From Vairimorpha necatrix (taxonomy: Eukaryota): 64,000 bases of DNA. The notes beneath the pieces were generated by a model. That model searched no databases, had not been told where the DNA came from, and saw nothing but the letters and a program-made list of their open reading frames with translations. Each line of letters opens with the position of its first letter. Position 1 is the stretch's first letter. A program made the position numbers and the translations under genes. Shown piece after piece: positions 4,857 through 62,654 of the stretch. The stretch spans positions 434,001-498,000 of the forward strand of contig CP142727.1 in assembly GCA_036630325.1 (NCBI GenBank), written 5' to 3'.

Positions 4857-5516
4857 CTATTTATTTATAAATGTTGATCTATTTTTCTTGAATAATAAAT
4901 CCCTAGCATAGTTAATTCCCCTTTCGTTACAAAAATTCTGAGTATCCATGTGGTTATGTGGAGTTATGACGTATTTATCGTGGTAATCGGGAATTGGTTG
5001 TCGGTAATTTTTACTGTCCCTTAGTAAATTTATACATTCAACACTGTAAATGGGTATCTTCTTATCAAAAGTTATATTACATGTTAAATATAAATATGAT
5101 AATGTTTCGTTGTCTTTTGAATACATTCCTGTTATATAATAATCTTTTGTATCATCCAAAGTAATACTTGTTTCGAGAAATATTTTGTTGTCTAAATAGT
5201 TTTTTCTGTGCGAACAAGAACCTCCTTCCTGTGAACTATATTCATTAAGCTCGTTCTTTATGAAGTGACTAAACCAGCTGTATTCAAAATAATGACATCT
5301 ATCGGGATTTGTTAATTTCCATTCTAAAATGTCCCTAACAAAGACTGTTTTTTTCTTTGGTACTTCGTTCAATATATAAACATAACTTCCTGTATCAGAT
5401 GCATTGTAATAAAGAGGAATAGTTATTATACATTCATTTTTCTTCTTAAGCGACAAAAGAAGCTGAATAGTTTCACAATAAATTTTCATCATAAAAAAAA
5501 TATATGAAAAAAGCAT
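4857..5516 (-). CDS. Hypothetical secreted protein (~219 aa)
   Basis: ATG 5516 is immediately preceded by CCC. Signal-peptide-like start MLFSYIFFMMKIYC. Open frame to 4857. Confidence 0.7.
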   Translation of the reverse strand: MLFSYIFFMMKIYCETIQLLLSLKKKNECIITIPLYYNASDTGSYVYILNEVPKKKTVFVRDILEWKLTNPDRCHYFEYSWFSHFIKNELNEYSSQEGGSCSHRKNYLDNKIFLETSITLDDTKDYYITGMYSKDNETLSYLYLTCNITFDKKIPIYSVECINLLRDSKNYRQPIPDYHDKYVITPHNHMDTQNFCNERGINYARDLLFKKNRSTFINK

Positions 5517-9257: not shown

Positions 9258-10193
9258 TAACAAAAAAAATATTTTCTATTTTTCTAATATATTAAAAAAA
9301 TTAAATTTACATTTTAATGTTTATCAGGTTCTAGGCATGAGTAATAAATTAGTTCAAAATACCTAAAATCTAGTCTTGTTTGCATCTTATCTCCATCTTT
9401 TCTATGTTTGATACTTTATTTGTTTTTTTAATATCAAATCTTACTTATAAAAATTTCAATTTCTTTATGCTCCTAAAAACAAAAAAAAACATAATATGTT
9501 ATAATAATAAACTTATAAAGGGTTAAAGGCAAATCGTTGGTGTATATCTTAAAAATCTAGAGCGCGTTTTTTTGTTTACATTAAAAATAAATATATAATA
9601 GTAATATCGTCTTCTAAATTATTTTTTAGAATATTTTTTTTAAAATTTATATAAATAAACACGCAAATCTGGTTTAAAATAAAAGCAAGTTTTTTTTCTT
9701 ATATATGAAAATATTCAGCTTGTAACTTAGTAAAGTATATATAAAATTTTTTATAAATGGAGTAAGGAAATTTGAAAAACTCGAAAGCAAATCTTTTATT
9801 AAGTCTTTTAGAATTTGAATAAATAGAGCAACCATTTAAGTCGATAAAAAACAAAATTTAAGATGATTGTAATTCAATATTTACGTGTTAAAAAATTATA
9901 TTTTTGGTTCAGCAAAATTTAATTAATTAAATTTTTTTTTCGTGTTGTAAATAAATGATCTAGTTAAAGAATTATTAGGTTTATTTTAATTGATATTGAC
10001 TTCAGAACAATGTTAATTCGTACTAATATTCACCATTTGGTATTATAATATCTTCTTATAGTAATTTGTCAGCAAATTTTGAGCTATCATTGAAAATATA
10101 TTTTAAACTGTAAAATCTATCAGTACTTAACCACATTTTTGACTGTAAAGACAAAAAAAAATAGTTACTTAAATTGATTAAGTTAATATAATA

Positions 10194-10231
10194 TGTTAAC
10201 CATTTATTTATTAAGGGTTCTAAACCCTACA
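10194..10231 (-). repeat. 3' LTR of element 1 (38 bp)
   Basis: TG...CA ends, adjacent to the PPT. Contains the polyprotein stop codon (TAG, 10222-10220). Confidence 0.95.
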
Positions 10232-13200
10232 TCCCCCCTCCAGACGGGTAGTCTCTCCATCTTCTAAACAACTCTTCCTTATCTCTTTCAAATCATAATG
10301 CCTCTTTTTAACAATTTTACCATCCAGTAGTCTCACAATATATGAATCATTTTCACTTATAGCTACGATCCTTCCGCGACCCGTGAATCTTCCCTTGTCT
10401 GTTTTCGCACGTGTACCTAAATTTTCTCTCCTAGCGATTCTTACCTCTTGGCCTACTGTAAATGTCTCTCTGTGTCTTCTCTTGAACCGACCAGCATATT
10501 TTCCATTTTCATCATTTTCAATTATAACTTCAGCAGTTTGATCTCTCCACGCTTCCATCGGCGTACATTTTATTGCTGTATGTAGTGTATTATTATATCC
10601 TTTGATTGCTCTTTCTATCTTTTCAGAAATATTCCCATCATTTTGCTTTATCAATGTCTCTCTTATAGTTCTGATGCATCTCTCGATTCTACCATTACTC
10701 CTATGAGCTTCTAAGCCCACTTTCCTATGTTTAATATCATTAATACTACACCATTCTTTAAATCTATTACTTACAAACTCTTTTCCGTTGTCTGTCACAT
10801 ATTCCTCTGGAAAACCATCTTCCCTTATCCACTTTTGTAATACCTCTATAACTTCACTACTCTCTTTACATCTCAAATTCGAACCCCACAACCTTCTAGT
10901 AAAGTAATCAATACCCAGTAACACATACATATTCTCTCCACCTATGTCCATTAAATCCAACGCCACTTTCTCCAATTTCTTTCTAGTTACTACAAAATCA
11001 CATCCTCCTGTGTTTTTCCTATTGTTAATCCCACATATTTTTCAATTCTTAATTACCTTATTAATATGATCTTTCATACCAGGCCAATACCATCTTTGTT
11101 TAATGTTATAATAAGTGCCTTTGACACCTCTATGGTTTAACTCCTCATGTACTCTTGTTATTTCATGTTCTCTACTATCTAGGCTCAATATCTCTTTCAC
11201 CTCACCTGTGGAAAATTCCCAATACTGTTTACCGTCCTTTTCTTTAATATGTTTCTGCTTTTTTCCCAAAATTTGTTTTTCGATCACTTCTTTTCTCTTG
11301 TTGTCCTTTTCTTTTTGTTCATCCGAAACTTCTACCTGATCATACTGCCTGCTTAACGCATCTGCATCTGTCATCAACTCCCCTTTCACATACTCTATTG
11401 TAAAGTCAAACTCTTGTATCTGTTCTACCCATCTGTTTATTCTGTTATTATTGAAGTATGGCTTATTTCTGATCTCTGCTAATGCTTTATGATCCGTCAT
11501 CAAATGAAATTTCCTTCCTCTCAAATCACTTTCAAACTTCTTTATTCCAAAAAACACCGCCAACATCTCCTTCTCACTTATCGTATATCTTCGCTCGGTA
11601 GGAGTCAACATTTTCGATGCCCATTGTATCGGAATCCACTCACCCTCTTTATTTTCTTGTAATAGAATTGCTCCGATCCCCGTATCACACGCATCAGTTC
11701 TTACTCTAAATAGCTTTTTTCCGTCCGGAATCTTCAACTTTTTCATATCTCTCAAGCCTTGCTTCATATCCTCAAAGGCTCTTTCCATATCCTCCGTCCA
11801 ATTCCACTTAACATCTTTCTTTAAAGCCTCAGTAAGCCTTACTGTTCTATACGCATAGTTGGGAATAAAGTCTCTAAACCAACCAGTTAGTCCTAAAAAT
11901 CTTCTTAACTCTCTAACATTCTCAGGTTTTCTATATTCCAATGTCTCCTGCTTTTTAATCTCATTCGGTCCCATGACCTCCCCATTAATTGTTACTCCCA
12001 GCAACATCACCTCATCTTTTTTGTATTGTATCTTTGTTTGGTTTATTCTCAACCCACACTCTTTAAACTTTTTAATTACCCTCTCTAGTAACTCGTCATG
12101 CACTCTTACGTCTTTACCATGAATAACTATATCATCCATATATACTTCCACGCCTTTACCTCTGAATTCATCTAAAACTCTGTTCATTACTCTCTGCATT
12201 ATATGAGGCGAATTCTTAAACCCCATAACCATACTATTCCATTCGTATACTCGACCATTCACTTCAAATGCTGTTTTGTGCTTATGGTGCTCCTCAATCT
12301 CAATATGATAAAACCCTTCTTTTAAGTCGATAACCGTAAATACTTTTGACCCCTGTGTGGCTCTCATAATATCCTTAATTAACGGTAGTGAGTACGGGTC
12401 CTTGTCAACCAAATCGTTTAACGCCATCAAATTGCTTACCAATCTTACGTCCCCATTTGGTTTTTCAAGTGCTCTTATTGGACTCCTCCACTCACTTTTG
12501 GAACGTCTTATAACCCCTCTATTTTCCAACTTATTCAAGTACTCCTCAAATTTCACCCTAAGGTAGTATGGCACATTCTGCCCTCTTTTCACAACCTTTT
12601 CACCTTGCTTAGTATTTATTGGACACTTCTCTCCTGTGAGATATTTTATCTTTTCTTCTGATTCTTTAAAAACTTCCGGATACTTTTCAATTAAATTTTC
12701 TAACTTATTTACTGTTTTACATCTTTTCCCTTCATTGTTGATAATTGGTTCTTTCTGTAAAACTTGTTCCTTTTTAATTTTATATTTTTCCCTACCAGCT
12801 ACACTTTCATGACATTCTCTAGCGTAATGCCCTTCTTTCTTACATATAAAACATTTTGTAGTTTCTCTGATTTCTCTTCTTTTCCTATACATCCTAAGAT
12901 TTTCTTTTCTTTCTTCCCTAAACTCTTTCAACACTTTATCCATAATCTCTTTAATCATTTCTTGTCTTTCTTTTGACTCTCTCTCAAATTCTGCTCCTTT
13001 TTGTAAGCCTTTATAAATTTCCTCCCAACTGCTCCTTCCGTCACAAAAATTTTCAAAAATATAATCCTGCAAGTTCGCAGATGCCAAATCCATAACATCT
13101 TTCCACTCAACTTTCTCAACTTTCAATATTAACTTTAGTCTCTTATCTATCCTAATTGCCTCTTTCTCTAATGTTCTAGCCTCTTGACTACGGGACTCTC

Positions 13201-13240
13201 TTGTTTCCCTGTTCATCCTTGTGTTCGCCATGTTAACCAT
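10220..13240 (-). pseudogene. Single Gag-RT-RNaseH-integrase polyprotein of element 1 (1006 codons, one premature TGA)
   Basis: CCHC knuckle CFICKKEGHYAREC, RT YMDD, RNase H TDA...E...TDH...DALSR, and integrase D,D(35)E (VALDL/TDNG/SNGRIER). The two listed ORFs are in frame, with TGA at 11044-11042 replacing the first Cys of the integrase CxxC. Confidence 0.92.
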
Positions 13241-13268
13241 TTATTTATTAAGGGTTCTAAACCCTACA
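13231..13268 (-). repeat. 5' LTR of element 1 (38 bp)
   Basis: Minus strand TGTAGGGTTTAGAACCCTTAATAAATAAATGGTTAACA, followed directly by the TGG PBS. Confidence 0.95.
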
Positions 13269-13352
13269 TAATATATAAAATTTTTCTTTTATTGATGCAA
13301 TGCACTAGTCTTGATATTATATTGTAACTATAAAATTTGAACATGTATACAC

Positions 13353-16300
13353 TGTGTTTATTTTCCATAATGAGGGGTAAAAATAATAAGGATATATAAC
13401 ATCCCCCCTCCAAGACGGTAGTCTCATACTAGAACTCATTAATCCCAAGCAGACCTTTAAAATCATAATGCCGCTTTTTCACGATCCTACCATTTTCCAA
13501 ACTAACTAAGTACGAGTCACCTCCGCAAACTTCCTTGATAACACCATATCCTAAAAACCTTCCTTTCTCATACTTACTACAACCCAATAAGTTCTCTTTC
13601 TTCGCTACCCTAACTCTCTGACCTTTATAGAATTTCTCTCTTTTGCGAGCCACAAACCTCCTACTATAAAATCCTTCAGGTCCATTCTCGATCATAACAT
13701 GGCCCGTTTCGTCTCTTGAGGCCTCAAACGGTGTACATCTCAACCCTTCATGATAGCTGTTATTATAACGCCATATACATCTATTAACCTTGGCTTCAAA
13801 ATCCACAGCATCATCTTTCAATATTCCTTCTCTTATGGTTCCTATTACCCTTTCCACTCTTCCATTACTTCTATGACTTTCTACGCTTACTTTCCTATGT
13901 AATACATTTTCCTCTGAACACCAATTCCTCATATATTCATTACTAAATTCTTTACCGTTGTCAGTAATTATTTCTACCGGTTTCATTCCTGATCCACACA
14001 ACTGTTTTAAAAATCCTACAACCGAGCTTCCGCGTTTGTCCTCTATTACTTTTCCCCAAACGATCCTAGTATAATAATCAATCACGACCAACACATATTT
14101 CCCTAAATCTCTAAACTCAATCAAATCCAAAGCAACCTTTTCCAAATAAAATCTTGAACTAACAAAATCACAACCACCACTCTTTTTCCTATTATGTATT
14201 TGGCAAACTTCACACTTTTTTAAAACATCCTCGATATCCTTCTTCATACCCGGCCAATAAAATTCAAACTTCATTGCATAGTACACTGGTCCTAAACTTC
14301 TATGTCCCAAATTTTCATGAGCATTGACAATTAAACCTTCACGCAATTCTTTCTTTGGAATCTCCGCTTCTCTACCAGAGTCAAATACCCAAATTTCCTT
14401 TCCATCAACAACTTTAACATGCTTGTCCCATTTACCCTGTGCCTGTTTAATACTTCTCTCCTTATTCATTAGCGTTTTCTCATTTTCATGTACCCTACTC
14501 AGTGCATCTGCTACAACCATGGTACTAGGCTCTCTATATTCAATGCTAAAGTCGAACTCTTGAATCTTTTCAATCCACCTGTTAATTCTATTATTGTTAA
14601 ATGCTGGTTTATTTCTAATCTCGATCAATGCCTTATGATCAGTTTCTACCCTAAATCTTCTTCCGCGTAGTTCATATTCAAACTTTTTAATTCCCCAAAA
14701 GACTGCATACATCTCCTTCTCACTGATTCCATATCTCTTTTCCGTAGGCGTAAACTTTTTTGATGCCCACTGTACTGGTACCCAATTACCTTGATCATCT
14801 TCCTGCATTAAAACAGCACCCATTCCAACATTACTCGCATCCGTGCGTAACAAAAATTCCTTATTATAATTAACAATTGCTAAACCTTTTAAATCCCTAA
14901 TCACTTCCCTTAAACTAATATATTCTTTTTCCATTTCTTCTGTCCATTTCCAATTACTTCCTCGTCCTTTAAGAGAATCCGTCAACGCCAATGTACGTTT
15001 TGCATAATTATCAATATGATTTCTAAACCATCCAGCCAGCCCAAGAAACTTCCTAACATCTGATACACACTCCGGTTTGGGAAATTCTAACGCTTCATTT
15101 TGCTTTATTTCAGATGGCAGTATCTCCTTGCCATTAACTGTTACTCCTAACAACATCACCTCTCGTTTACATAATTGAACCTTAGCCAAATTAATTTTCA
15201 TATTATTCTCCTCTAATATATCCACAGCCTCTTTCAACAATTTGTCGTGACCCTCTCTTGTCTTACTATGAATCACAATATCGTCCATATAAATTTCGAT
15301 TCCCTTACCAATAAATTTTTCAAAAATCCCATTCATTATTCTTTGTAATATCTGCGGAGAGTTTTTAAACCCCATGACCATCGAATTCCACTCGTATACC
15401 TTTTTATTAAACTCAAAAGCCGTCTTAAACCTATCCTTCTCTTCATCTCAATACTATAAAACCCCTCCTTTAGATCTATCACGGTAAAAAATTCAGATCC
15501 CTGTGTACTTCTAATAACATCTCTTATCCTAGTTAACTCATAAGGGTCCTTCTCTACAATGTCATTAAGAGCAATTAAAATACTTACTAATCTTATATCA
15601 CCATTCGGTTTCTCAATCGCTCTAATGGGATTTCTCCAGTCAGATGTCGACCTTCTAATTATCTTTCTTCTTTCCAAACTATTAATATAATCTTCCGTCT
15701 TCTTCAACAAAGCCTGAGCTATAGCCTGCCCTTTTTTAACAACTTTCTTGCCTTCTTGAGTCTTGATAATACATTTTTCAACCTTACAAAAACTAATATC
15801 TTCATCCTCTCTTCCTCCTACCCGTGAAATAATCTCCTCTAAATACGCGATGCCTCTTACATCCCTTCTCAACAGAACTCTCTTATTATTGTCCCTTTTG
15901 CTATAATCTTGTATATCCCCTAAATTTTTCTTCTTACGTTTTCCACCATCAACATTATAATAATCACATTTGTCCGAATTGGAATCGTCATCAAATTTAC
16001 CCCCTAAGTCTAATTGCACTTTACATTTACCAACATAATTAAAACTACTTTTATTTCTTCTGTCTTCAGAATCTCGCCTCATTCCCCTACAAAATCTAAC
16101 ACTATGGCCTAACTTCCCACAATTGTAGCAACGCATATTCTTTTTATTTTCCTCACGAGACAACTTATTCTTCTCCTCAAATTTAGCCCATAACGCTAGG
16201 GACAACTCTTCAAATTCTTTTTTTCTCACTTGTTCCTTTTCCTCCTGAATAGCTAGCAACTCTAATTTTTCCTCAATTTCCTTCCAACTACCCTCTTGCG

Positions 16301-16535
16301 AGATCCTCTCAACAATAAAATTTCTCAATAAAATAGAACCTCTCCTAAAAATTTCTAACTTAAATCCACACTCATCAATTTTCTCTAAAAACAACTCATA
16401 AACAATCCTTTTAACCTCTTTTAATAATATTCTAGCCTCTTGGCCACGGTCCTCCTTTGTAGACCCATTTTCTGGTATCGCCCCCATGTGTTTATTTTCC
16501 ATAATGAGGGGTAAAAATAATAAGGATATATAACA
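13353..16535 (-). mobile_element. Ty3/Gypsy-type LTR retrotransposon, element 2 (3183 bp, 49-bp LTRs)
   Basis: Identical repeats TGTGTTTATT...ATATATAACA at 13353-13401 and 16487-16535. TSD TACAC at 13348-13352 and 16536-16540. PBS TGGGGGCGATACC and PPT GGAGGGGGGA. Confidence 0.97.
13429..16502 (-). pseudogene. Gag-RT-RNaseH-integrase polyprotein of element 2, one 1-bp frameshift in RT
   Basis: CYNCGKLGHSVRFC knuckle, YMDD, HHCC and DDE motifs. FYSIE(I)EEKDRFKTAFEF is restored by adding one base near 15445, which joins ORFs 15336-16502 and 13429-15381. Confidence 0.92.
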
Positions 16536-17361
16536 TACACTATTAATATGTAATTACTGTATAAATATGTACTATTTCAACCACTTATTCTTACTTTTCT
16601 GATATACAGTGTATTTTTTATTTTAGATATTACTTATATTAAAAATTTTAATGCGCATAAGGTATAATAAGATGTATTTTTTTCTCATTGTTTATTCTTA
16701 AAAATCAAATTCTGGCTATGATCAATAAATAATATAAAAAACAAAGTACATTTTTGTCAAGAAATAATTGAGGTCTATTAATTCTTTTTAAACATAATTC
16801 TTTTAAAAAAAAGAAGATGTTTAATTGCATTTTTTATAAGTTTTAATTCACATTTGTGAATTAATTTTCTTTATTTGATCAAAACAAATATTCATAAAAC
16901 AATGTTAACATTTAATTTTAAATTTAGAAAAGGAGACAATTTTTACCAATTTTTAAATAATAAAAAATTTATGAATGGTTAATGAATTTATTTATAGTAG
17001 AGTCGTGTTTTCAAGTAGAATAGAAAAGAATATCTTTAAGGTTATTTTTTCAATTGAATTTATTGCTATACAAACAAACAGTATTGTTTATATTTCATTC
17101 GGAAGAATAAATTTTAATAATAAGAGCCTTAAATCATCAGATTTTTTTGGACATATGTTTGTAGTCATTTTATTATTGAAAATATATATGCTTACTCAAA
17201 GTTTTAAAACTTTTGTATAAACAACATCATTAATAAGCACTTCCTAAAATATGCAATTCATATAGTATATTAGAATAAATGAAAAAATTGAGGACAAAAA
17301 TAAATTATAATTAATAAAATTGTAAAATATGAAAAACGGTGTAAAAATTTAGTTAATGAAT

Positions 17362-19685: not shown

Positions 19686-21617
19686 CAAGATATTTATATG
19701 TAGTTTTCTGTATTTCCACAACAAATATAAATTCTAACAAGAAATAATTTTCTTTTAGAGGTACAATTCGAGTTAAATTTATATTAAATTATTCAATTCA
19801 TAAAAACCTCTAGTATTAAGGTATGTATTTTACTTTAAGATTGATATTTTGAAATGCTGTTGTTGCACGTACAATGTTCTTTACGTTCGTATACCTTTAT
19901 CATTTTCACTATTAAAATTTCCTTTTAATGATGCCTTCTATAATATAGCGCCTATTTCCTTTGATGACGATGTAAAACTGTAGTTTTTGCTTGATATGCA
20001 GTTTTTCGGAGACAACAAATATCACACAAAAATCTCTAGAGCATAAAAATTTTATATCGATGATCTTATAACATCAAATAAAAAATTCATTTTCAATAAT
20101 ACTTTCACAGTATACCAAAGTTTGATTATATAAATGATATTAACCACATCTTTTATATTTGTATGAATGCAAAAATTATCATTTCATTAATCAGTTATTA
20201 CGTTTTAAATATTGCAATGTTAATTGGTCTAAAATAGAACACAGTATTAAAACTCAATCTACACAGAAAACCTATAATACATATTTTAAAGCCTTATTTT
20301 AGATAAAATCTGCATCAAATATCTCTAATTGGACTGATTTTTGGTATGGATTTTTTTAAAAAAGGTTTTTGAATGTGAATTTTCTGTAAACAATAAAGGA
20401 AGGTTTTGAAGTATTTGTATAAAAATATAAGATGAAAAAATTGTGTTTATATTACGTATATGCCCTTATACTGTATAAAATTCCTCTGGACAATCTCTTA
20501 TTACAACAATAAAATATTTTTATATGTTAAGTATAAAAAAGGATTTTTTTAAAAAAAATTTAATACTGTAAATACGTCCCAGTAATGTATTTTGACAAAT
20601 TTGTTGAATAAGAAAAAAGTTAATAAATAATACAATATAGGTTAAAATTTGTCTTAAGCAATATTATTATAAGTTTTCTCGGAAATATAAAAATTCTTTG
20701 AATTTTTTAAAACAAAAAGCTACAAGAGCTAGTGTCTATATTTATATGACATATATAATTCTAGATTGTAATTAATAAAGTGAAAAACAAAGATATATTC
20801 ATTGTAAAAACATTAGATAAACCTAAAAAAATGTAACCAAAAAATAAAATTAATTACAATATTTAAAATATATAATAAAGTGTTGTAATGTTTATTAAAA
20901 TTACTACTATAAAGATAATCATGCAAATTTATAATATTGAAGAACTTTTAATAAGACTTTTTCCTGTTTTTTTTTGCAACTTTTTATAATTGCATTTTAT
21001 TGAGGTATTTCTTATACTATACACGCATTCATGTAATAATATAATATATAGTCGATTTAGAAACGCCTCATCTTAAACAAAAAATAATTTATTTTATCTT
21101 AAAAGAATTTTTAATGTTTGTGTTGTTAAATTTAAATTATAATTCAATTGTTATAATTCTAATAGTATTAACAACGCAGATTTTTACATTAATGTGAAAA
21201 AATACATTTTATACGTCTTCTTAAAAGTATCTGCACATTACAAATAAACACATATTATATTTGGTTATTTATTATCTTATTAGTTTCGGATATGTGAATC
21301 CGTGTATATATATAATCACAAACATGCAACATAATATTCTGTGCTGAAATGATAAGTTTAATGTGACTGAACCATATATATATATTTAAAAATAAATTTG
21401 TATATATAATTAAATTTGATCCACAGAACAAAATTATTAAAAAAACGTAAGATAGATAGAACTATACCTGTTAAAATATGCCAAAAGTATATTTACTTAC
21501 AGATTTGTTTACACAAACAATTGTTCGGGTTAAAGCCAAAAAAAAACTCATGCAAAGTTTATAACATTATTGTTGAAAGTTTACATATATAAATAACAAA
21601 AAATGTGTTTACCCTAT

Positions 21618-22586
21618 ATGTTTATATTTATTGTATTTTTCAAATGTTCAGCCAATTTTTTCAATACTGGTGAAACATCTACACAGCTTCAATTTGATAA
21701 TCAAAAAAAGAACAACGAAGATATTTTTATTAAATTTTTGACAAAGGAAAACAATAAAGCACCTCAAGAAGAACGGGTAGATCCAACAATAGAAGTACTA
21801 TTCGAACATTTGATAAAAGGTGGTAATTTAGAGACATACAAAGGATTGACCACAAATGATAATTGTCAACAAATTGATAACGTCAATTCCAATTCGACGG
21901 CAAATGACATAGAAGACTATTTATTTTTAAATCATCAATTGAATGAGATGAAAGATAAATTTAATAATATCAAGCTGAAATTAGCGGAATTATTTCCTAA
22001 AAAAACAAAACGGGTTATAGTTGTAAAATTTAATAAAGACGAAAAAAATAAAATTAAATTTAACAGACGATATTTGTGCAAGAGGTTTTTAAAATATAAA
22101 ATAAAAATGTATAATTTTGCTATAAAAATAAAAGATGAACTTAGTAAATTGAACTATTTTGATATGAATATTGTGTTTGATTGTTTGGATTTTATAATTG
22201 AAATTTCTGATTTTGTAATACCGAAGATAAACAAATTATACTTAAGAAAATTTTCTCATAGTTTGCTCGATTCTCTTTCTTTAGATTGTTGGAAAATAGA
22301 GGAGGTTATTAATGTAATTGATATACCACGATTTATTTCATGCATCTATATCATTCTTGATTTTAAGATTAAAAATAAAAATAAGAAAATTATATCAATT
22401 TTGAATGATATGGTTGAACTAAAAGATAATTTTAGTTTTTTCTATAAACAAAAAATTATGCCAGTTTCACGAATAAATGAAATTTGCGAAATAATCAGAG
22501 AAAAACATAATATAATAAAACAAATGTACATGTATAAAGTTTACATTTCCATTTATTTTGTGTATATTTGTCTTAACAGGTTTTAG
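21618..22586 (+). CDS. Hypothetical secreted protein (~322 aa)
   Basis: CCC-TAT-ATG at 21618 gives MFIFIVFFKCSA, which is signal-peptide-like. Long open frame. The upstream ATG at 21603 is an alternative start. Confidence 0.7.
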   Translation: MFIFIVFFKCSANFFNTGETSTQLQFDNQKKNNEDIFIKFLTKENNKAPQEERVDPTIEVLFEHLIKGGNLETYKGLTTNDNCQQIDNVNSNSTANDIEDYLFLNHQLNEMKDKFNNIKLKLAELFPKKTKRVIVVKFNKDEKNKIKFNRRYLCKRFLKYKIKMYNFAIKIKDELSKLNYFDMNIVFDCLDFIIEISDFVIPKINKLYLRKFSHSLLDSLSLDCWKIEEVINVIDIPRFISCIYIILDFKIKNKNKKIISILNDMVELKDNFSFFYKQKIMPVSRINEICEIIREKHNIIKQMYMYKVYISIYFVYICLNRF

Positions 22587-29243: not shown

Positions 29244-31334
29244 TTAAGGAATATATTCAATATTATTATTTTTCATATGAAGATATCCTTTAGACATCAA
29301 TCTCTGTAAAATACCTCGTAAATCTGAATCCTCAAAATCGAGCGAGCCTGAAATTTCCTTAATTGTTGATTTTTTATGTTTTTTCATAAATTTCATTATT
29401 TGCGAATCCACTGCGAATTCTACCAGAGAATTATTATTAATTTCACTGTCGAGTTTAACTTCATCTTGTATTTTATAATCAAATAAATCTATTGAGTCAA
29501 ATTCTTCTTCATTTTTTATTTTTTTGTTCAAAATTTTACATTTATCTTTCAGAATTTCAAGGTCAGAATTAATAAAAATTTTATTAGTTTCCCGTCTAAT
29601 AAATCCATGTTTCTCCAAAAAATCAATGTTTTCCTCAAAATTCGGATCTTTACTTAAATTTTTCACTTTTTTTATTAAATTTTCTTCTGAAAAATACATC
29701 AAAAGAGACACTTTGTCCGCGCTCAGCCTGAAATTTATTCCCAGAAACTCAAAAATTATAAAAGACGCTCTAAAAGAGCAAGAGATTTCTGATCTTGGAA
29801 ATTTCAAATAAAATCTTTTCACTAAAATATCTTGTAAAGCAGACAACTTCGGATGTAAATTTATCGAATTAATTTCGATATTACAAAATCCTTTAGTAAT
29901 TAATCGTAATTCTGTTAAAAAATTTTCATTTTGTCCACTTAATCCAAAACTTTGTTCAATTGGCGAATTGTAATTTTGTAAAATCAAAATTAACCAAGAC
30001 ACACTTGATGAACCACAATAAATCTCACAAACCCTAAATAGTTGAAGTTCTTGGTCTATTTTTGTAGTGTCATTGATTATTCTTTCCAGACAATCATGGC
30101 ATAATTTGTTTATTATTAAATTTTTCTGATTAAGTTTGTTTATCAAATAAAATGTGTAATTTAATTGTTCATCAAAATCTTCTTTTTGATTTATCCAGTT
30201 TGAAAAATAATTTGGTAAGTTTTCCGTATTTGATAAAAGTTCTACTATTTTTTTTTCGATGTTTAATTGAAAAGTGTCAATTTTCAAATTTTTAAATTTG
30301 AAATTTTCAAAAAATAATAAAAAAAATTTGAAAATTTTTTCTGGATCTTTTAAAAATTCTAAATGGGTTAGAATGTGAAGTTCTAATTTTTTAAAGAATA
30401 TTGAAATGTAATTTTCTTCCATATAAAAAAGAATATTTTCGATTTTTTTATAATTTTCAATGAATTTTGTATTATTTGCGTAAAACCTTGTATAATTAGT
30501 TACATTTGAATTATCGACTTTGTTTTGTTCATTATTATTTACAACATGATTTTTAGTATTTACAGAATTAATATCATTAGATTTTAAATTTTGTTCCCTT
30601 GGTATTTTTTTATTGTTAAAAAACCAGTTTAATAATTTTTTAAAATTTTTAGAAATAAGTTTCACAATCTCAGAATAAAATTCTCTATCAGAAGATTCAA
30701 ACAGTTCTTTTGCTATTTCCAATTCTCTATTAGTTTTACTTATCAATTTTTCTATATCATCATCTTTACAAATTTTAAAAGATTTAAAATAAATTTCCAA
30801 AAATTTTTCATATTCTTCCAAATTTTCACTATAAAAAAACAGGTCTTTTAGAAATGTCACAGATTTCTTTAATTCCTCCATATTTTCCAGTTTATTTGAT
30901 TTTCTTAGTGTTTCTATTTCATAAATGAAATATTCTTCTATATTTGTTATACGCGAATACATGAAATTATTATACAATAAGTTATAGAATAATGTATTAA
31001 GATGTACTACGTTACTACCTCTTTTTTTTATATTACAATTTATATAAAATCTTTCTAGATAATAATAAACTCTATTTATTAATATAAAACTTTTTTCAAG
31101 TTTTATATTTAATAGAAAAAAGCCTTGTAAAGAAGAAATAGGCCTTAAAGATTTGAAATATTCTGATAAGACCTTTTTTAGTAAGTCGTAGATGAGAGCG
31201 CCTTTTATTTCGTAAGATTGGGTTTTTTCTGTACAGTGTAAATAAATGATATTGTAAGATTTTATAAAGTCATTTGAAGTGAACGAGTCACTTGTTTTTA
31301 ACATTTTGAGAGTCAAATTTTCCAAGTCTTTCAT
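29244..31334 (-). CDS. Divergent cullin-family protein
   Basis: N-terminal Y..IY.HCT and ...VYYYLERFYI cullin-repeat motifs, LITKGF, and a C-terminal winged-helix/neddylation-type region VDSQIMKFMKKHKK...LQRLMSKGYL. ATG 31334 is preceded by CCCC. Confidence 0.8.
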   Translation of the reverse strand: MKDLENLTLKMLKTSDSFTSNDFIKSYNIIYLHCTEKTQSYEIKGALIYDLLKKVLSEYFKSLRPISSLQGFFLLNIKLEKSFILINRVYYYLERFYINCNIKKRGSNVVHLNTLFYNLLYNNFMYSRITNIEEYFIYEIETLRKSNKLENMEELKKSVTFLKDLFFYSENLEEYEKFLEIYFKSFKICKDDDIEKLISKTNRELEIAKELFESSDREFYSEIVKLISKNFKKLLNWFFNNKKIPREQNLKSNDINSVNTKNHVVNNNEQNKVDNSNVTNYTRFYANNTKFIENYKKIENILFYMEENYISIFFKKLELHILTHLEFLKDPEKIFKFFLLFFENFKFKNLKIDTFQLNIEKKIVELLSNTENLPNYFSNWINQKEDFDEQLNYTFYLINKLNQKNLIINKLCHDCLERIINDTTKIDQELQLFRVCEIYCGSSSVSWLILILQNYNSPIEQSFGLSGQNENFLTELRLITKGFCNIEINSINLHPKLSALQDILVKRFYLKFPRSEISCSFRASFIIFEFLGINFRLSADKVSLLMYFSEENLIKKVKNLSKDPNFEENIDFLEKHGFIRRETNKIFINSDLEILKDKCKILNKKIKNEEEFDSIDLFDYKIQDEVKLDSEINNNSLVEFAVDSQIMKFMKKHKKSTIKEISGSLDFEDSDLRGILQRLMSKGYLHMKNNNIEYIP

Positions 31335-48559: not shown

Positions 48560-50602
48560 TGTCCTGTATCAACGGGACTTTGCTATATTTAAAATAGCAT
48601 TCTAAATAGTTTTTAATATTATATAATTTATTGATGGTTTCTCTATTTCTCTTATACTCCATACCCTTCACAGACAGACTTTCTTTTATATTTTATTTTT
48701 AATTTATTATTTCTTGTCAACACTAAACACAAACATTGGCGTACTTACGAATGTAGTAACGACCATCCAACTTTCGTTTGTTTGTTTGTGTGACACATCT
48801 TGACAGGTCATTTGAAATGCTTGACATGTCTTTAGACATCAGTGACAGCTGATGGTTTTAGCAGCTGTCCATGTGATGTAGTAATATACATCACATTCTG
48901 CCCTCTCCTAAAGCTTTAAGTTTTGAGCCTGTCTCCATTCATTGTTATATATTGCTGACAACCCTTCATGTTTAGATATTTCATCCGGCGGTTCTACTAT
49001 TATATTATTTGTATCGTTTTTTATAGCGTTCTGCTTATTCTTTGTGTTTATATTATTTAATGATTCTTTCAGCTTATTTCTTATTTTATTCGTATTCATT
49101 TGTTTGTCTTTATCACGATATTTTATTTTTGTTAGTTTAAAATCTCTATTCCTTTTATATTCATCTTTTTTATTGTTTTTGAAGTTATTTTTCATCTTAT
49201 TGATTAACGTCTTGTCAATTTCTGTCATTCTTTCGATATTTTTATCTTTTTCTTTTAGTATTTTTGTTTCAGCTACCTTTTCACGTAGATTTTCCTGGCT
49301 AAGCGTATTCGCTTTTGTTTCATCATTTGCTGATGTTTCATGTTTAATTTTAACTTCTTTCAATTTTTTCTTATTTAAAGTTTCTTCTTTTAATAAGTCA
49401 TTATTCTCGACTTTATCTTTTGTTTCTTTAACTTCCTTCATCATGTATAGCTTTACTGGAACATCCTCTTTGACTTTTCGATGATGCGATGTTTTCCTTA
49501 GCTGTTCGGAAGTATTATTTTTTATCGTAAAGCATTCATTTGAATCGTGCGTAGTATTTTTGTGTAAACTGCACCATTTACTATTCATATAGTTATCGTT
49601 TTGATTCCTAAATCGTTCTCGATCCATGTTAATTTGTCTTTGTTTGAGACCTCGTCTCTTACCTTCTAATATAAGATATTCTTCTACTGATTCTAGATAT
49701 GCAACGATATCTTCAATTTTTTTTATTCCCAATTCTAAAATTTTTAATCTAGTTGAAAATCCTAAGCCCATAAAAAAACTTTCTCTTAGTTTTCTTTCAT
49801 ATTCCTTTCTGGTTAAACCTTCAATTCTGCTATATTGGTCAATTAAGTCTTTTAATTCTGTTAAATATTCTTTAATATATTTGAAATGTGTCTGCCTACA
49901 ATCCATTATTTTCAGCTGGAGCATTTCTGAACTCATTTTTTTAGTTAAATTTTTTTCTATAAATATTTTTATTTCTTTTAATTCTGATAAAGAAAATACT
50001 GGTTGCAACATTGGGTCTTTAATGAGCTCTCCTAAAGCTATTTTCTGTTTCTTAATATCCCAATTCTTATGTTTACTTATTTGGTTGAATTCTTCAAACC
50101 AATGTTCTAATTCAGCATGATCATACTCTCTGATGTCTGCTATTATGTCTAAGTGTTTTTCCACTTCTAAATCGATCTCCTCGATCGTGTATTTTAATTT
50201 TAATCCTTCTCTGGATTTTTTTTTTTATTTTTTCCTGCAATACAAGTTGCTCTTTGAATTCAAATTTGTCCTGTATCAACGGGACTTTGCTATATTTAAA
50301 ATAGCATTCTAAATAGTTTTTAATATTATATAATTTATTGATGGTTTCTCTATTTCTCTTATACTCCATACCCTTCACAGACAGACTTTCTTTTATATTT
50401 TATTTTTAATTTATTATTTCTTGTCAACACTAAACACAAACATTGGCGTACTTACGAATGTAGTAACGACCATCCAACTTTCGTTTGTTTGTTTGTGTGA
50501 CTCATCTTGACAGGTCATTTGAAATGCTTGACATGTCTTTAGACATCAGTGACAGCTGATGGTTTTAGCAGCTGTCCATGTGATGTAGTAATATACATCA
50601 CA
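48560..50602 (-). mobile_element. Non-autonomous Gag-only LTR element, element 4 (2043 bp, 336-bp LTRs)
   Basis: Direct repeats TGTCC...TCACA at 48560-48895 and 50267-50602, with one mismatch seen. TSD TTTAT on both sides. Purine tract AGGAGAGGGCAGAA before the 3' LTR. No RT or IN sequence. Confidence 0.93.
48908..50369 (-). CDS. Gag-like protein of element 4 (capsid-like helices, CHHC knuckle, Lys/Asn-rich tail)
   Basis: RQTHFKYIKEYLTELKDL (MHR-like), LRESFFMGL and WCSLHKNTTHDSNEC. Probably starts at ATG 50369 inside the 5' LTR and needs a one-base shift at the A11 run 50216-50226. Confidence 0.75.
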
Positions 50603-59513: not shown

Positions 59514-62500
59514 TGTTATATATTTTTATTTTTTTGATCCCCAATTATGATAAATAAATACATGGGGGCGATACCGAATCGTGAGTTAACAAGTGTTGGC
59601 TGTGGTCAAGAGGCCAGAAGGTTATTAGAAGAGTTTAAGAGATTTGTTTATGGATTAGTATTGTCTGATTATGATTTTGAGAAAAATGTAAAGAACGAGA
59701 TTTTTGATCTTGGAACTGATGAGTTGAAAGAATTTATGGTTAAGAAAATTAAGATTGGAGATCATTGGAAAGTTATGGAAACCAAATTAGAGGAATTGGT
59801 TAAAGTACAGGAGGAAAAGGATATGAGATTACGGATGATTGAGGAGGTCACAAAGATGGTGGCAGAGGAGATTAGAAATATTAGTAGAGAGGAAAGAATA
59901 TTTGAGAAGAGAAGAACAATGAGATGTTATAATTGTTCAAGAATGGGACATAAGAGTCAGATGTGTTATTATAAATATAGAAATGTTAAGAATAAAGACG
60001 AATGTGAGAGTATTAAAGAAGAAGATAGCATAGCTGTGGTGAAAGGACTTATAGGAACACATGGGATGCTAAAAGACAAAAGAAACAAGAATGGAAGACA
60101 AGAAATAAAAGATGTTATGATGAGGTAGAAAAGAACGGTCTAACATTAGAAGACATGAGAAAGAGGTTTAGGAACGTTATAGACAACGAAGAAGAGAAAA
60201 TAAGATATTGTAAAATTGAGAAATGCAGAATCAGAACTGAAGAAGGTAAGAAAGTTGTAAGGAAAGGTCAGCAGGTGCCACAAGCGCATAAAGAAGAGCT
60301 GAGAAAATATATTCAGAGGTTAGAGACAAGGAACGTCATAAGAAGATCGACGTCGGAATATAGAAATCCGATCAAAGCTTTAATTAAGCCAGATGGAAGT
60401 ATAAGACTGGTAAGCAATCTCATGGCATTAAATGATTTAGTGGAGAAAGACCCTTATGAATTAGTGAACATTAGGGATATCATAAGGAACACGCAAGGAT
60501 CGAAGTTTTTCAGTGTTATAGACCTTAAGGAGGCTTTTTATGGAATCGAAATAGAAGAGCAAGACAAGCATAAGACTGCATTTGAGTATGATAAGATAGT
60601 ATATGAATGGAATAGTATGGTCATGGGTTTAAAAACTCGCCTCAGATCATGCAGAGAATTATGAATAAGATTTTTGAAAAACATTTGGGTGGTAAAATAG
60701 AAGTATACATGGATGATATAGTGATTCATGCGAAGACTAGAAAAGAACATGATAAATTATTTGTAGAAGCGATGAAATTGTTAGAACGGAATAATATGCG
60801 GATAAATTCAAGGAAAATTCAGTATTGCCAAAAGGAAGTCAAGTTATTGGGAGTTACATTAAACGGAGATGATATGATGCCGTCTGAAATCAAGAAAAAC
60901 GAAGCACTAGAGTTTCCAACGCCGCAGAATGTGTCTGACATAAGAAGATTTTTAGGACTGAGTGGATGGTTTCGAGGATTTATTAAGAATTATGCGGAGA
61001 AGACATTATATATGACTGAAAGTTTGAAAGGTAAAAGTAAAGTATTGAATTGGACTGATGACTTAAATAAAGAGTTCGAAAATATGAAGGAAACGTTAAG
61101 AAGTATGAGTAAGTTGAAAATTGTAAACTATGACAAGGAATTTTTATTAAGAACTGACGCGAGCAATATAGAAATGGGCGCAGTACTCATGCAGAAGAAT
61201 GATAAAGAAGAGTGGGTGCCAGTACAATGGGCATCGAAGAAATTCACCCCGACGGAAACTAGATATGGTATAAGTGAAAAAGAAATGTATGCCATATATT
61301 GGGGAATAAAGAAATTTGAGTATGAGTTAAGAGGACGAAAATTTAAAGTAGAAACGGATCACAAAGCAAAGGCGAAGATAGGAAGAAAGCCGTGTTTTAA
61401 TAATAATAGAATTAATCGATGGATTGAAAAGATCCAAGAATTTGACTTTGAAATAGATTACAGGAAACCAGAACATATGGTCGTGGCGGATGCTTTGAGT
61501 AGGATACACGAGGAGGTTGATCCAAGAAAAGAGATGATAAAAAAAGAAGTGAGCGTCAAATTGAAGGTAAATGGTTGAAACACGTCGAGACAATAGATGG
61601 TAAAGAATACTGGAATTTTGATTCGGGGAGGAAAGCATTGATTCCTAAAATAAAAGAAAGAGATGAGCTTATGAGACGTTATCATGAAGAGCATGGACAC
61701 AGAGGACTAGGAAGCATGTATTATGCAATGAAGTTTGATTATTATTGGCCAGGAATAAAAGAAGATATAGTGAAAATGATAAAAAGATGCGAGGAGTGTC
61801 AAATTTACAATAGGAAAAAGTCTGGAGGATGTGATTTTGTTGCTACAAGCAGGTATTTAGAAAAAGTGGCGTTAGATTTAATTGATTTTAGAGATAAGGG
61901 CAAATATGTATTAGTTGCGATAGATTACTATACGAGGATAGCGTGGGGATGTGTATTATACGATAAGAAGAGATCCTCTGTGGCCCAGTTTATTGAGAAC
62001 TTATGTAGGAATGGCAGGAGGCCGAAGAAAATAATAACGGATAATGGGAAGGAATTTGATAATGTTGACTTTAAGGATTTGTGAAGAAAATTGGATATTA
62101 CCCATAATAAGGTGAGTGTCGAGTCTCATAGAAGCAATGGTAGAGTTGAAAGAGTTATAGGAACGCTTAGAGAGCTAATATTGAAAATGAGTAAAGAGAC
62201 GACGAGTTTTGAAGACATAGTGATGAAAAGCTTTAAAATTTACTATAATAGTTTTCATGAAGGTATAAGAAGTACTCCCAATGAAGCGGTAAAAGACAAT
62301 ACGGGAAAAGTGATGATATTAAATGGACCAGAAGGAGACTACAGTAAAAGATTTGTTAGAAGATATAGAGAGCGGTTTATTGAAGGACAACGAGTAAGGA
62401 TAGCTAAGAAAGAAAACATCAAAGGATGTAATAAATATGAAAAGGGAAGGTTTTTAGACGAAGGTATTATAATGGTGATATGCCCTGGGGACTCGTAAGT

Positions 62501-62654
62501 TGTGAAGCTATCTAATGGGCGATATGTTAAAAAGAGACATTATGACTTGAAAAATCTGCTTGGGGTTAATGGTGATGTAGGAGACTAACCGTCTTGGAGG
62601 GGGGATGTTATATACTCTTATATTTTTGATCCCCAATTATGATAAATAAATACA
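59514..62654 (+). mobile_element. Ty3/Gypsy-type LTR retrotransposon, element 3 (3141 bp, 49-bp LTRs)
   Basis: LTRs at 59514-59562 and 62606-62654 (3 mismatches). TSD TTTAT at 59509-59513 and 62655-62659. PBS TGGGGGCGATACC and PPT GGAGGGGGGA. Confidence 0.96.
59547..62588 (+). pseudogene. Decayed Gag-RT-RNaseH-integrase polyprotein of element 3
   Basis: CYNCSRMGHKSQMC, YMDD and DDE motifs. Frameshifts in the post-knuckle linker, near 60630 and near 61545. In-frame stops at 62082-62084 and 62496-62498. Natural stop at 62586-62588. Confidence 0.9.

Follow-up and report, generated by a model that had tools for sequence, protein, structure and literature searches.

Compact Ty3/gypsy-type retrotransposons without an encoded aspartic protease in the microsporidium Vairimorpha necatrix

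Retrotransposons of the Ty3/gypsy type, among them Ty3 and Tf1, encode, in this order and downstream of a CCHC zinc knuckle, reverse transcriptase (RT), RNase H and an integrase of the DDE type that carries an H2C2 finger, and they are framed by long terminal repeats (LTRs) with TG...CA ends, a primer binding site (PBS), a polypurine tract and a 5-bp target duplication. The same plan, with a PBS-like sequence in the place of the PBS, is found three times in a stretch of 64,000 nucleotides of Vairimorpha necatrix (contig CP142727.1, positions 434,001 to 498,000; hereafter the window), in what we call elements 1, 2 and 3. Like Tf1 these have a single Gag-Pol open reading frame (ORF), and the N-terminus of the element 1 RT matches that of the Ty3 RT (4ol8). 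They differ from Ty3/gypsy elements, however, in that they are without an aspartic protease, that a Gag-like region of ~130 residues shows no recognisable capsid domain, that the LTRs measure 38-49 nt instead of hundreds and the entire element 3.1 kb, and that the ORF begins in the LTR and reads through the PBS. They are also distinct from DIRS-like elements, since they carry an rve-type DDE integrase and direct LTRs rather than a tyrosine recombinase and split or inverted repeats. The three elements are members of a microsporidian clade of very compact Ty3/gypsy-type elements from which the aspartic protease appears to have been lost, most simply once. We propose in addition that their polyprotein acts unprocessed, a proposal that we regard as evenly balanced between being right and being wrong.

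According to an excerpt of PMC3281118, most reported LTR retrotransposons are longer than 4 kb. The three Microsporidia-specific Ty3/gypsy groups carry, in the excerpted text of Parisot et al. 2014 (PMC4202319), one polyprotein and not separate gag and pol genes, and the present elements resemble these groups in their single-ORF polyprotein and in their microsporidian hosts. Nearly all Nbr elements of Nosema bombycis, as a section of PMC2474625 has it, encode Gag, protease, RT, RNase H and integrase; being protease-bearing, they differ from the protease-less clade described here. The word 'protease' is unmentioned in the available text of PMC4202319, PMC2387174 and PMC7313128, and we found no publication, PMC11592040 included, that describes microsporidian LTR elements without a protease or LTRs of so small a size. 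Members of the clade may already be contained, without comment, in the consensus sequences of PMC4202319.

Each of the three elements is ~3.1 kb long and consists nearly entirely of one ORF of ~1000 codons, in which a helical domain of ~130 residues, the CCHC knuckle, a disordered spacer whose length varies, RT, RNase H and the DDE integrase follow one another. In element 1 the ORF runs on the minus strand from 13240 to 11042, where it meets a stop, and then from 11041 to 10220, passing through the polypurine tract and terminating within the 3' LTR; the segment 12690-13240, to which a preliminary description of this DNA had drawn attention, comprises residues 1-184. That description had the knuckle of element 1 begin at residue 130 and only ~35 residues separate it from the RT lead-in, and it was right on both counts, as the CCHC motif occupies residues 130-143 and the lead-in KLENLIEKYPEVF begins at residue 179, with YMDD at 367. 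The linker of ~80 residues assigned to element 2 likewise agrees with what we find (CCHC at 125-138, VQLDLGG at 162, RT lead-in near 218), and Gag and Pol had correctly been placed in one frame, the Gag-like region, knuckle and RT sharing their frame in elements 1 and 2. For element 3 a 'similarly short' linker can be upheld only approximately, as a frameshift lies inside it. The reading frame is also interrupted in the other two window copies, by one in-frame TGA in element 1 and by a frameshift inside RT in element 2.

An aspartic protease between nucleocapsid and RT is absent from the elements, as Pfam, a custom hidden Markov model (HMM), six-frame translation, motif searches and structural models all agree. 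No D[ST]G motif stands upstream of RT in any of the three elements, just as the preliminary description had stated, and such motifs are present only further on, in RNase H (at residue 519 of element 1) and between RNase H and integrase. The Pfam matches of the four ORF pieces of elements 1 and 2 at E<=1 comprised zf-CCHC, RVT_1, RT_RNaseH, RT_RNaseH_2, Integrase_H2C2 and rve, with no protease family and no Retrotrans_gag among them. We derived a protease HMM from 13 segments of the closest relatives that encode the enzyme. It reached at best E=0.6-2.1 on the window pieces and gave no match to the N-terminal piece of element 2 even at E<=100; nor is a protease present in another frame, since none of the 434 six-frame ORFs of the window scored below E=1.9. 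The sensitivity of this HMM can be judged from a list of 113 further proteins, 44 from the family (P0162-P0205) and 69 from outside it: 39 of the 69 outsiders, including animal, plant and Amphiamblys elements, were matched at E<=1e-3, as against none of the 44 family proteins at E<1.

The AlphaFold2 models point in the same direction. In that of element 1 (residues 1-270, 14-row alignment, mean predicted local distance difference test score (pLDDT) 70.7) linker residues 153-177 have a pLDDT below 50 and the RT N-terminus comes next; the model of element 2 (residues 1-351) has the same helices and a linker (residues 147-258) with a pLDDT of ~28-30, and neither model contains a beta-rich domain. 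The VQLDLGG motif of element 2 had been put forward as a possible protease relic. As the linker around it is modelled as disordered and free of strands, and the protease HMM is silent there, we reject this suggestion. A K-R pair (element 1 residues 172-173) and its neighbours (window 12716-12724) form a basic cluster before the RT lead-in. The pair is invariant in 6/6 and 5/5 aligned close relatives and could serve either in nuclear localisation or as a site at which a host protease cuts.

Upstream of the linker, the region that takes the place of Gag is small and predicted to be helical. The element 1 model shows helices at residues 14-39, 46-52, 55-66 and 72-127, with a pLDDT of 80-88 over residues 1-129, and the sequence blocks that had been described as shared by the N-termini hold up, Q19, E20, R22, L24, E27, R30 and W72 being invariant in all six aligned sequences. 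The cysteines and the histidine of the C-x2-C-x4-H-x4-C knuckle (C130, C133, H138 and C143) are invariant among the aligned relatives too. Its Pfam zf-CCHC score of 19.2 falls just below the cut-off of 20.8, while phmmer against the PDB sequences matched it to HIV-1 nucleocapsid (E=3.7e-4) and returned zinc knuckles as the sole matches. In a Foldseek search of the PDB with the element 1 model, matches were confined to the RT N-terminus, with Ty3 RT 4ol8 as the best hit (E=0.036), and VIA-align against 48,161 chains matched residues 12-132 to generic helical bundles only (best Z 6.3); no capsid or retropepsin chains were listed among these fold matches, which does not by itself show the folds to be different. 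When profiles were compared with those of the relatives' Gag proteins, the alignment was confined to the knuckle (E=2.4e-9), apart from a weak match (E=0.006, probability 6%) between the surroundings of W72 and helices in the Gag of the sister clade that contain a tryptophan. The shortness of the Gag-like region, a further point of the preliminary description, is evident from the 121-164 residues that precede the knuckle in the knuckle-bearing part of the clade, as compared to 184-262 in six of eight protease-bearing relatives; the remaining two, with 99 and 114, may be truncated predictions. We infer that the N-terminal domain is a reduced remnant of Gag. Among 23 intact members the mean pairwise identity amounts to 19% in the N-terminal domain, 37% in the knuckle, 16% in the linker, whose length ranges from 28 to 163 residues, 59% in the RT core, 64% in RNase H and 44-47% in the integrase regions.

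The lack of a protease and the short Gag are not confined to the window copies but characterise a whole clade with many intact members. We collected the nearest relatives with phmmer from 1.84 billion representative sequences, taking the intact protein P0004 (1014 aa, on a contig of 3091 bp) as query, and added the best 120 of 240 matches of a profile search at E<=1e-60. At least 27 uninterrupted family ORFs of 985-1091 aa were recovered, mostly on contigs of 3.0-3.8 kb. Among the matches listed, the family has its sources in Nosema granulosis, Vairimorpha necatrix, Enteropsectra breve, Pseudoloma neurophilia, Pancytospora epiphaga, Nematocida ausubeli and Nematocida sp. Of the named relatives, those from N. 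granulosis and V. necatrix come closest to the element proteins. The distance from the knuckle to YxDD is 224-271 residues in a first set of family proteins, as opposed to 298-394 in protease-bearing relatives, and 232-309 in a second set, save three rows in which the motif search took an earlier match. In P0008 it is 370, and the added stretch is of low complexity and rich in E and K. Some family copies (L004, L005, L006, P0003 and P0204) are found on short contigs labelled as bacterial bins (Clostridium, Turicibacter, Bacteroidales) and are most likely microsporidian DNA that was binned with bacteria.

In a tree of 65 rows (two from the window, 37 long protease-less and 26 protease-bearing; 829 columns, LG+G4, quick search, with fragments and most of the distant matches left out) the 39 protease-less rows form one clade, so that the protease label needs to change only once (SH-aLRT support 94). 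Their sister group consists of the protease-bearing P0085, P0025, P0161, P0155 and P0160 (support 99*), and more distant protease-bearing elements fall outside both. The same grouping is recovered in a tree of 50 rows under a mixture model, where support is 92 and, one node further in, 97*, and on both trees the elements nest among those of the gypsy type. A single loss of the protease is the simplest reading, although two losses are also possible. The sister clade, nearest on the tree, resembles our elements in its single ORFs of 1079-1163 aa and, in P0155, P0160, P0161 and P0025, in its very compact format (contigs of 3.5-3.9 kb). It differs in that it keeps a protease of ~95 residues (HMM E=1e-18 to 1e-28) and has a knuckle-less Gag-like region of ~200-240 residues. 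In two basal lineages without a protease, P0026/P0196/P0197 and P0011/P0188/P0190/P0192, the CCHC knuckle is missing as well and the Gag-like region is longer, with ~170-270 residues before RT, and protease and knuckle would thus have been lost or kept independently of one another.

That such elements have moved is evident from their insertion sites. We compared contigs of four public runs with window positions 9600-17100. A contig of 183 nt from run X1 has both insertion sites empty, joining 10189 to 13270 (with five shared letters) and 13348 to 16539; since each of its pieces departs from the window by 5-9 letters, its origin may lie in a related strain or at a paralogous locus. Other contigs continue into different flanking sequence at 16537 (X2, X3) and at 13269 (X2). 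At 11041/11042, where element 1 has its TGA, the contigs of X1-X3 depart from the window, those of X1 and X2 have one extra letter behind 15444, the site of the frameshift in element 2, and P0170 is an uninterrupted ORF of 1024 aa that is 96.6-98.2% identical to element 2. Moreover, the LTR pairs of elements 1 and 2 are identical. In run X1 the contig depth is 59-65 over the elements and 2.2-2.6 over their flanks, which hints at many copies but is not a copy number and is not relied upon. Elements 1-3 are complete, and their lineage, although it encodes no protease, has survived and transposed and appears to be mobile still.

The signals for replication are packed as tightly as the coding region. 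All three elements have an LTR bounded by TG...CA, followed by a PBS-like sequence that starts with TGG (TGGCGAACACAAGG in element 1, and TGGGGGCGATACC) and was assigned by its position and this start, and they carry GGAGGGGGGA before the 3' LTR; 5-bp target duplications flank each of the three, and LTR lengths of 38-49 nt are far below the usual range. As the ATG sits within the 5' LTR, the reading frame extends from there across the PBS-like sequence, translated as M-A-N-T-R (element 1) or M-G-A-I-P. Element 1 is 98% coding because its ORF spans the LTR start, the PBS and the polypurine tract and extends into the 3' LTR. The LTRs contain a T-rich run, a CCC motif, the ATG of the polyprotein and AATAAA, which overlaps or comes after the ATG; upstream of the ATG stand ATTTTTACCCCTCATT in element 2, TTTTTTGATCCCCAATT in element 3 and GAACCCTTAATAAATAA in element 1. 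In a section of PMC2803860, microsporidian ribosomal-protein genes are described as having a T-rich run, a CCC motif and, a few nucleotides on, the ATG, with 5' untranslated regions of less than 7 nt and with AAUAAA in use. The LTRs match this arrangement upstream of the ATG, and the LTR would accordingly seem to combine a host-style core promoter (U3) with a very short R that holds both the start codon and the polyadenylation signal.

This layout of LTR and start codon probably extends to the family as a whole. Eighteen of 23 intact family proteins have an N-terminal M-[AG], either at position 1 or after a leader of 3-7 residues, which fits the junction of CA and TGG between LTR and PBS, and L004, a relative that shares 66% protein identity with element 1, ends in the same polypurine tract and, behind it, a 3' LTR of 38 nt that matches; both suggest a shared arrangement. 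In the metagenome loci L001-L003, which are 47-57% relatives, no terminal repeats of >=25 nt were found, and L005 offers a candidate 5' end only, its contig stopping before the 3' end. Self-priming of the Tf1 kind, in which the 5' end of the RNA pairs with the PBS, was considered and seemed unconvincing by eye.

The preliminary description had offered a choice between an unprocessed fusion, cleavage by an enzyme of the host or one provided in trans, and replication with no conventional particle, and our data are compatible with each. But how would a polyprotein of ~115 kDa operate without processing itself? We suggest that its knuckle would bind in cis the mRNA that has just been translated into that protein, and that the long amphipathic N-terminal helix of the models would multimerise the protein so as to yield an RT dimer and an integrase multimer. 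The disordered spacer would serve as a flexible tether, by analogy with the hepadnavirus P protein, and replication would take place in a ribonucleoprotein with no closed capsid being formed. Retroelements without a protease of their own are known in DIRS/Ngaro, in the hepadnavirus P protein, which comprises terminal protein, spacer, RT and RNase H, and in the ORF1p/ORF2p ribonucleoproteins of long interspersed nuclear elements (LINEs). The P protein has a similarly hypervariable and disordered spacer between an N-terminal nucleic-acid-binding part and RT, and some LINE ORF1 proteins contain a comparable RNA-binding module of helices and knuckle. Different from all of these, the elements described here have kept LTRs, a PBS-like sequence, a polypurine tract and the DDE integrase, and they are nested inside Ty3/gypsy; the likeness may lie in a possible way of working and not in descent. 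Tentatively, and with less than even confidence, we would go as far as to suggest that an active clade replicates with neither protease nor capsid shell, as a naked ribonucleoprotein, and that these are the smallest autonomous LTR retrotransposons. It is to the same tentative suggestion that a packing of promoter, start codon, polyadenylation signal and strand-transfer homology into an LTR of 38-49 nt belongs.

Several points weigh against the proposal of a polyprotein that acts unprocessed. Protease mutants of Ty1, Ty3 and Tf1 are not known to transpose, and an unprocessed Gag-Pol would therefore be a real departure from the known mechanism. The processing state of the polyprotein is read from sequence and models, self-association of the N-terminal helix is hypothetical, and this domain evolves fast (19% identity as compared to 59-64% for RT and RNase H), so that its function is either under loose constraint or difficult to read. 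Support for the branch on which the protease-less rows are united is an SH-aLRT of 92-94, which is below 95 and leaves room for two losses, and the trees come from quick searches on selected rows. Finally, helper elements with a protease may reside elsewhere in the genome, the search having covered the 64-kb window. Such helpers are at the heart of one alternative, according to which the protease is lent in trans by protease-bearing sister elements in the same genome, leaving our elements autonomous for RT and integrase and parasitic for maturation. The existence of a closely related, compact and protease-bearing clade (P0155, P0160, P0161, P0025, P0085) makes this conceivable, but the protease-less clade is old and diverse, with 39 tree rows and at least six named genera, and no protease was detected in the window. 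In addition, the only protease-bearing element that names a microsporidian source among the matches listed (best 120 of 240) is a distant one from Amphiamblys, admittedly a weak argument, and the proteases of the sister clade may themselves be decaying, as P0025/P0159 have DPG in place of D[ST]G. We therefore consider a loan in trans to be doubtful. Maturation might instead be outsourced to a host protease that cuts the disordered spacers between knuckle and RT and between RNase H and integrase, an explanation that we hold to be unlikely, though more probable than a loan in trans. Cleavage sites would be expected to be accessible in a spacer as long, disordered and hypervariable as this one (28-163 residues, 16% identity), and the invariant K-R pair before the RT lead-in would suit such a role, yet it could equally belong to a nuclear-localisation signal. 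Candidates would be the host's own retropepsin-like Ddi1, the proteasome or an enzyme of the subtilisin type.

Could a protease be present and yet go unrecognised, be it a divergent aspartic or a non-aspartic one, in the linker, the RT lead-in or the N-terminal domain? The last of these is without an assigned fold, and fast-evolving microsporidian proteins often escape profile searches. The domain is, however, modelled with good confidence as all-helical, whereas retropepsins are beta-rich, element 1 leaves no more than 35 residues between knuckle and RT lead-in, and the lead-in also occurs downstream of the protease in protease-bearing relatives. As the same HMM detects the proteases of very distant relatives, we regard a cryptic enzyme as very improbable. 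It is harder still to believe that we are dealing with dead relics or assembly artefacts, in which the protease was deleted from defective copies: each of the three window copies does carry at least one stop or frameshift, but the architecture is common to the whole clade and is seen in at least 27 intact ORFs, and the identical LTRs of elements 1 and 2, the target duplications and the empty-site contig speak of intact and recent activity rather than of decay.

The window has a G+C content of ~25% and contains three islands of 35% with strong strand skew, at 10-16 kb and 60-62 kb. The GC skew of the elements has a magnitude of ~0.42-0.50 and is negative at 10-16 kb (10001-16000) and positive at 60-62 kb (60001-62000); purines strongly predominate in their coding strand. 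Elements 1 and 2 have the same orientation and follow each other head to tail, with 84 bp between them (13269-13352), which may reflect a preference for local insertion or a safe site common to both. The window contains no tRNA genes. Between the islands there are compact single-ORF eukaryotic genes, encoding Sec63/DnaJ, an aldo-keto reductase, a ubiquitin hydrolase, a DEAD-box helicase and RPN6. Five long ORFs of 219-696 aa (119-1351, 21603-22586, 29244-31334, 48908-50011 and 4857-5516) have no Pfam family at E<=0.001 and are typical fast-evolving microsporidian genes. The coordinates of the three elements and their parts are collected in Table 1.

Table 1. Elements 1-3 and their parts in the window (positions are those of the window).
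Feature	Position	Strand	Basis
Element 1, complete LTR retrotransposon, 3075 bp	10194..13268	minus	identical terminal repeats; empty-site contig (run X1)
Element 1, 5' LTR, 38 nt, TG...CA, with CCC motif, ATG start codon and AATAAA	13231..13268	minus	
Element 1, 3' LTR, 38 nt	10194..10231	minus	identical to 5' LTR
Element 1, target duplications TATTA	10189-10193 and 13269-13273		
Element 1, PBS-like sequence (TGGCGAACACAAGG...)	13213..13230	minus	assigned by its position and TGG start
Element 1, residues 1-129, helical Gag-like N-terminal domain	12854..13240	minus	AlphaFold2 model
Element 1, residues 130-143, single CCHC zinc knuckle, nucleocapsid-like	12812..12853	minus	Pfam, motif, invariant residues
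Element 1, residues 144-178, basic linker of 35 residues at the protease location	12707..12811	minus	predicted disordered
Element 1, residues 179-611, RT (lead-in; RVT_1 259-418) and RNase H (481-611)	11408..12706	minus	Pfam
Element 1, residues 690-end, integrase (H2C2 finger, DDE core, C-terminal part)	10220..11173	minus	Pfam Integrase_H2C2, rve
Element 1, in-frame TGA at a cysteine position of the integrase zinc finger	11042..11044	minus	
Element 1, polypurine tract GGAGGGGGGA, abutting the 3' LTR	10232..10241	minus	
Element 2, complete, 3183 bp	13353..16535	minus	terminal repeats; run X1 contig joining 13348 to 16539
Element 2, LTRs, 49 nt	16487-16535 and 13353-13401	minus	pair identical
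Element 2, PBS-like sequence	16469-16486	minus	
Element 2, polypurine tract	13402-13411	minus	
Element 2, target duplications GTGTA	16536-16540 and 13348-13352		
Element 2, residues 139-217, linker of ~80 residues with VQLDLGG	15852..16088	minus	predicted disordered
Element 2, frameshift inside RT	15336..15447	minus	overlap of two reading frames
Element 3, older copy, 3141 bp, ORF in five pieces	59514..62654	plus	
Element 3, LTRs, 49 nt, 3/49 positions differ	59514-59562 and 62606-62654	plus	
Element 3, PBS-like sequence	from 59563	plus	
Element 3, polypurine tract	62596-62605	plus	
Element 3, target duplications TTTAT		plus	

Elements of this kind would be overlooked or wrongly classified by standard LTR finders, which demand a protease domain and LTRs above a minimum length. 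The compaction of the elements fits the streamlining of microsporidian genomes, and the LTR seems to reuse the host's layout of promoter, leader and AAUAAA. Maturation of Gag-Pol by a retropepsin has been treated as a constant in the life cycle of LTR retrotransposons and retroviruses, and an intact, diverse clade that lacks it and is apparently mobile questions the need for processing and for a closed capsid. A system this small, at 3.1 kb with a single ORF, could serve to define which proteins and cis-acting signals LTR retrotransposition needs at a minimum. If these elements do replicate as naked ribonucleoproteins, they would amount to a natural experiment on what is essential to LTR retrotransposition.

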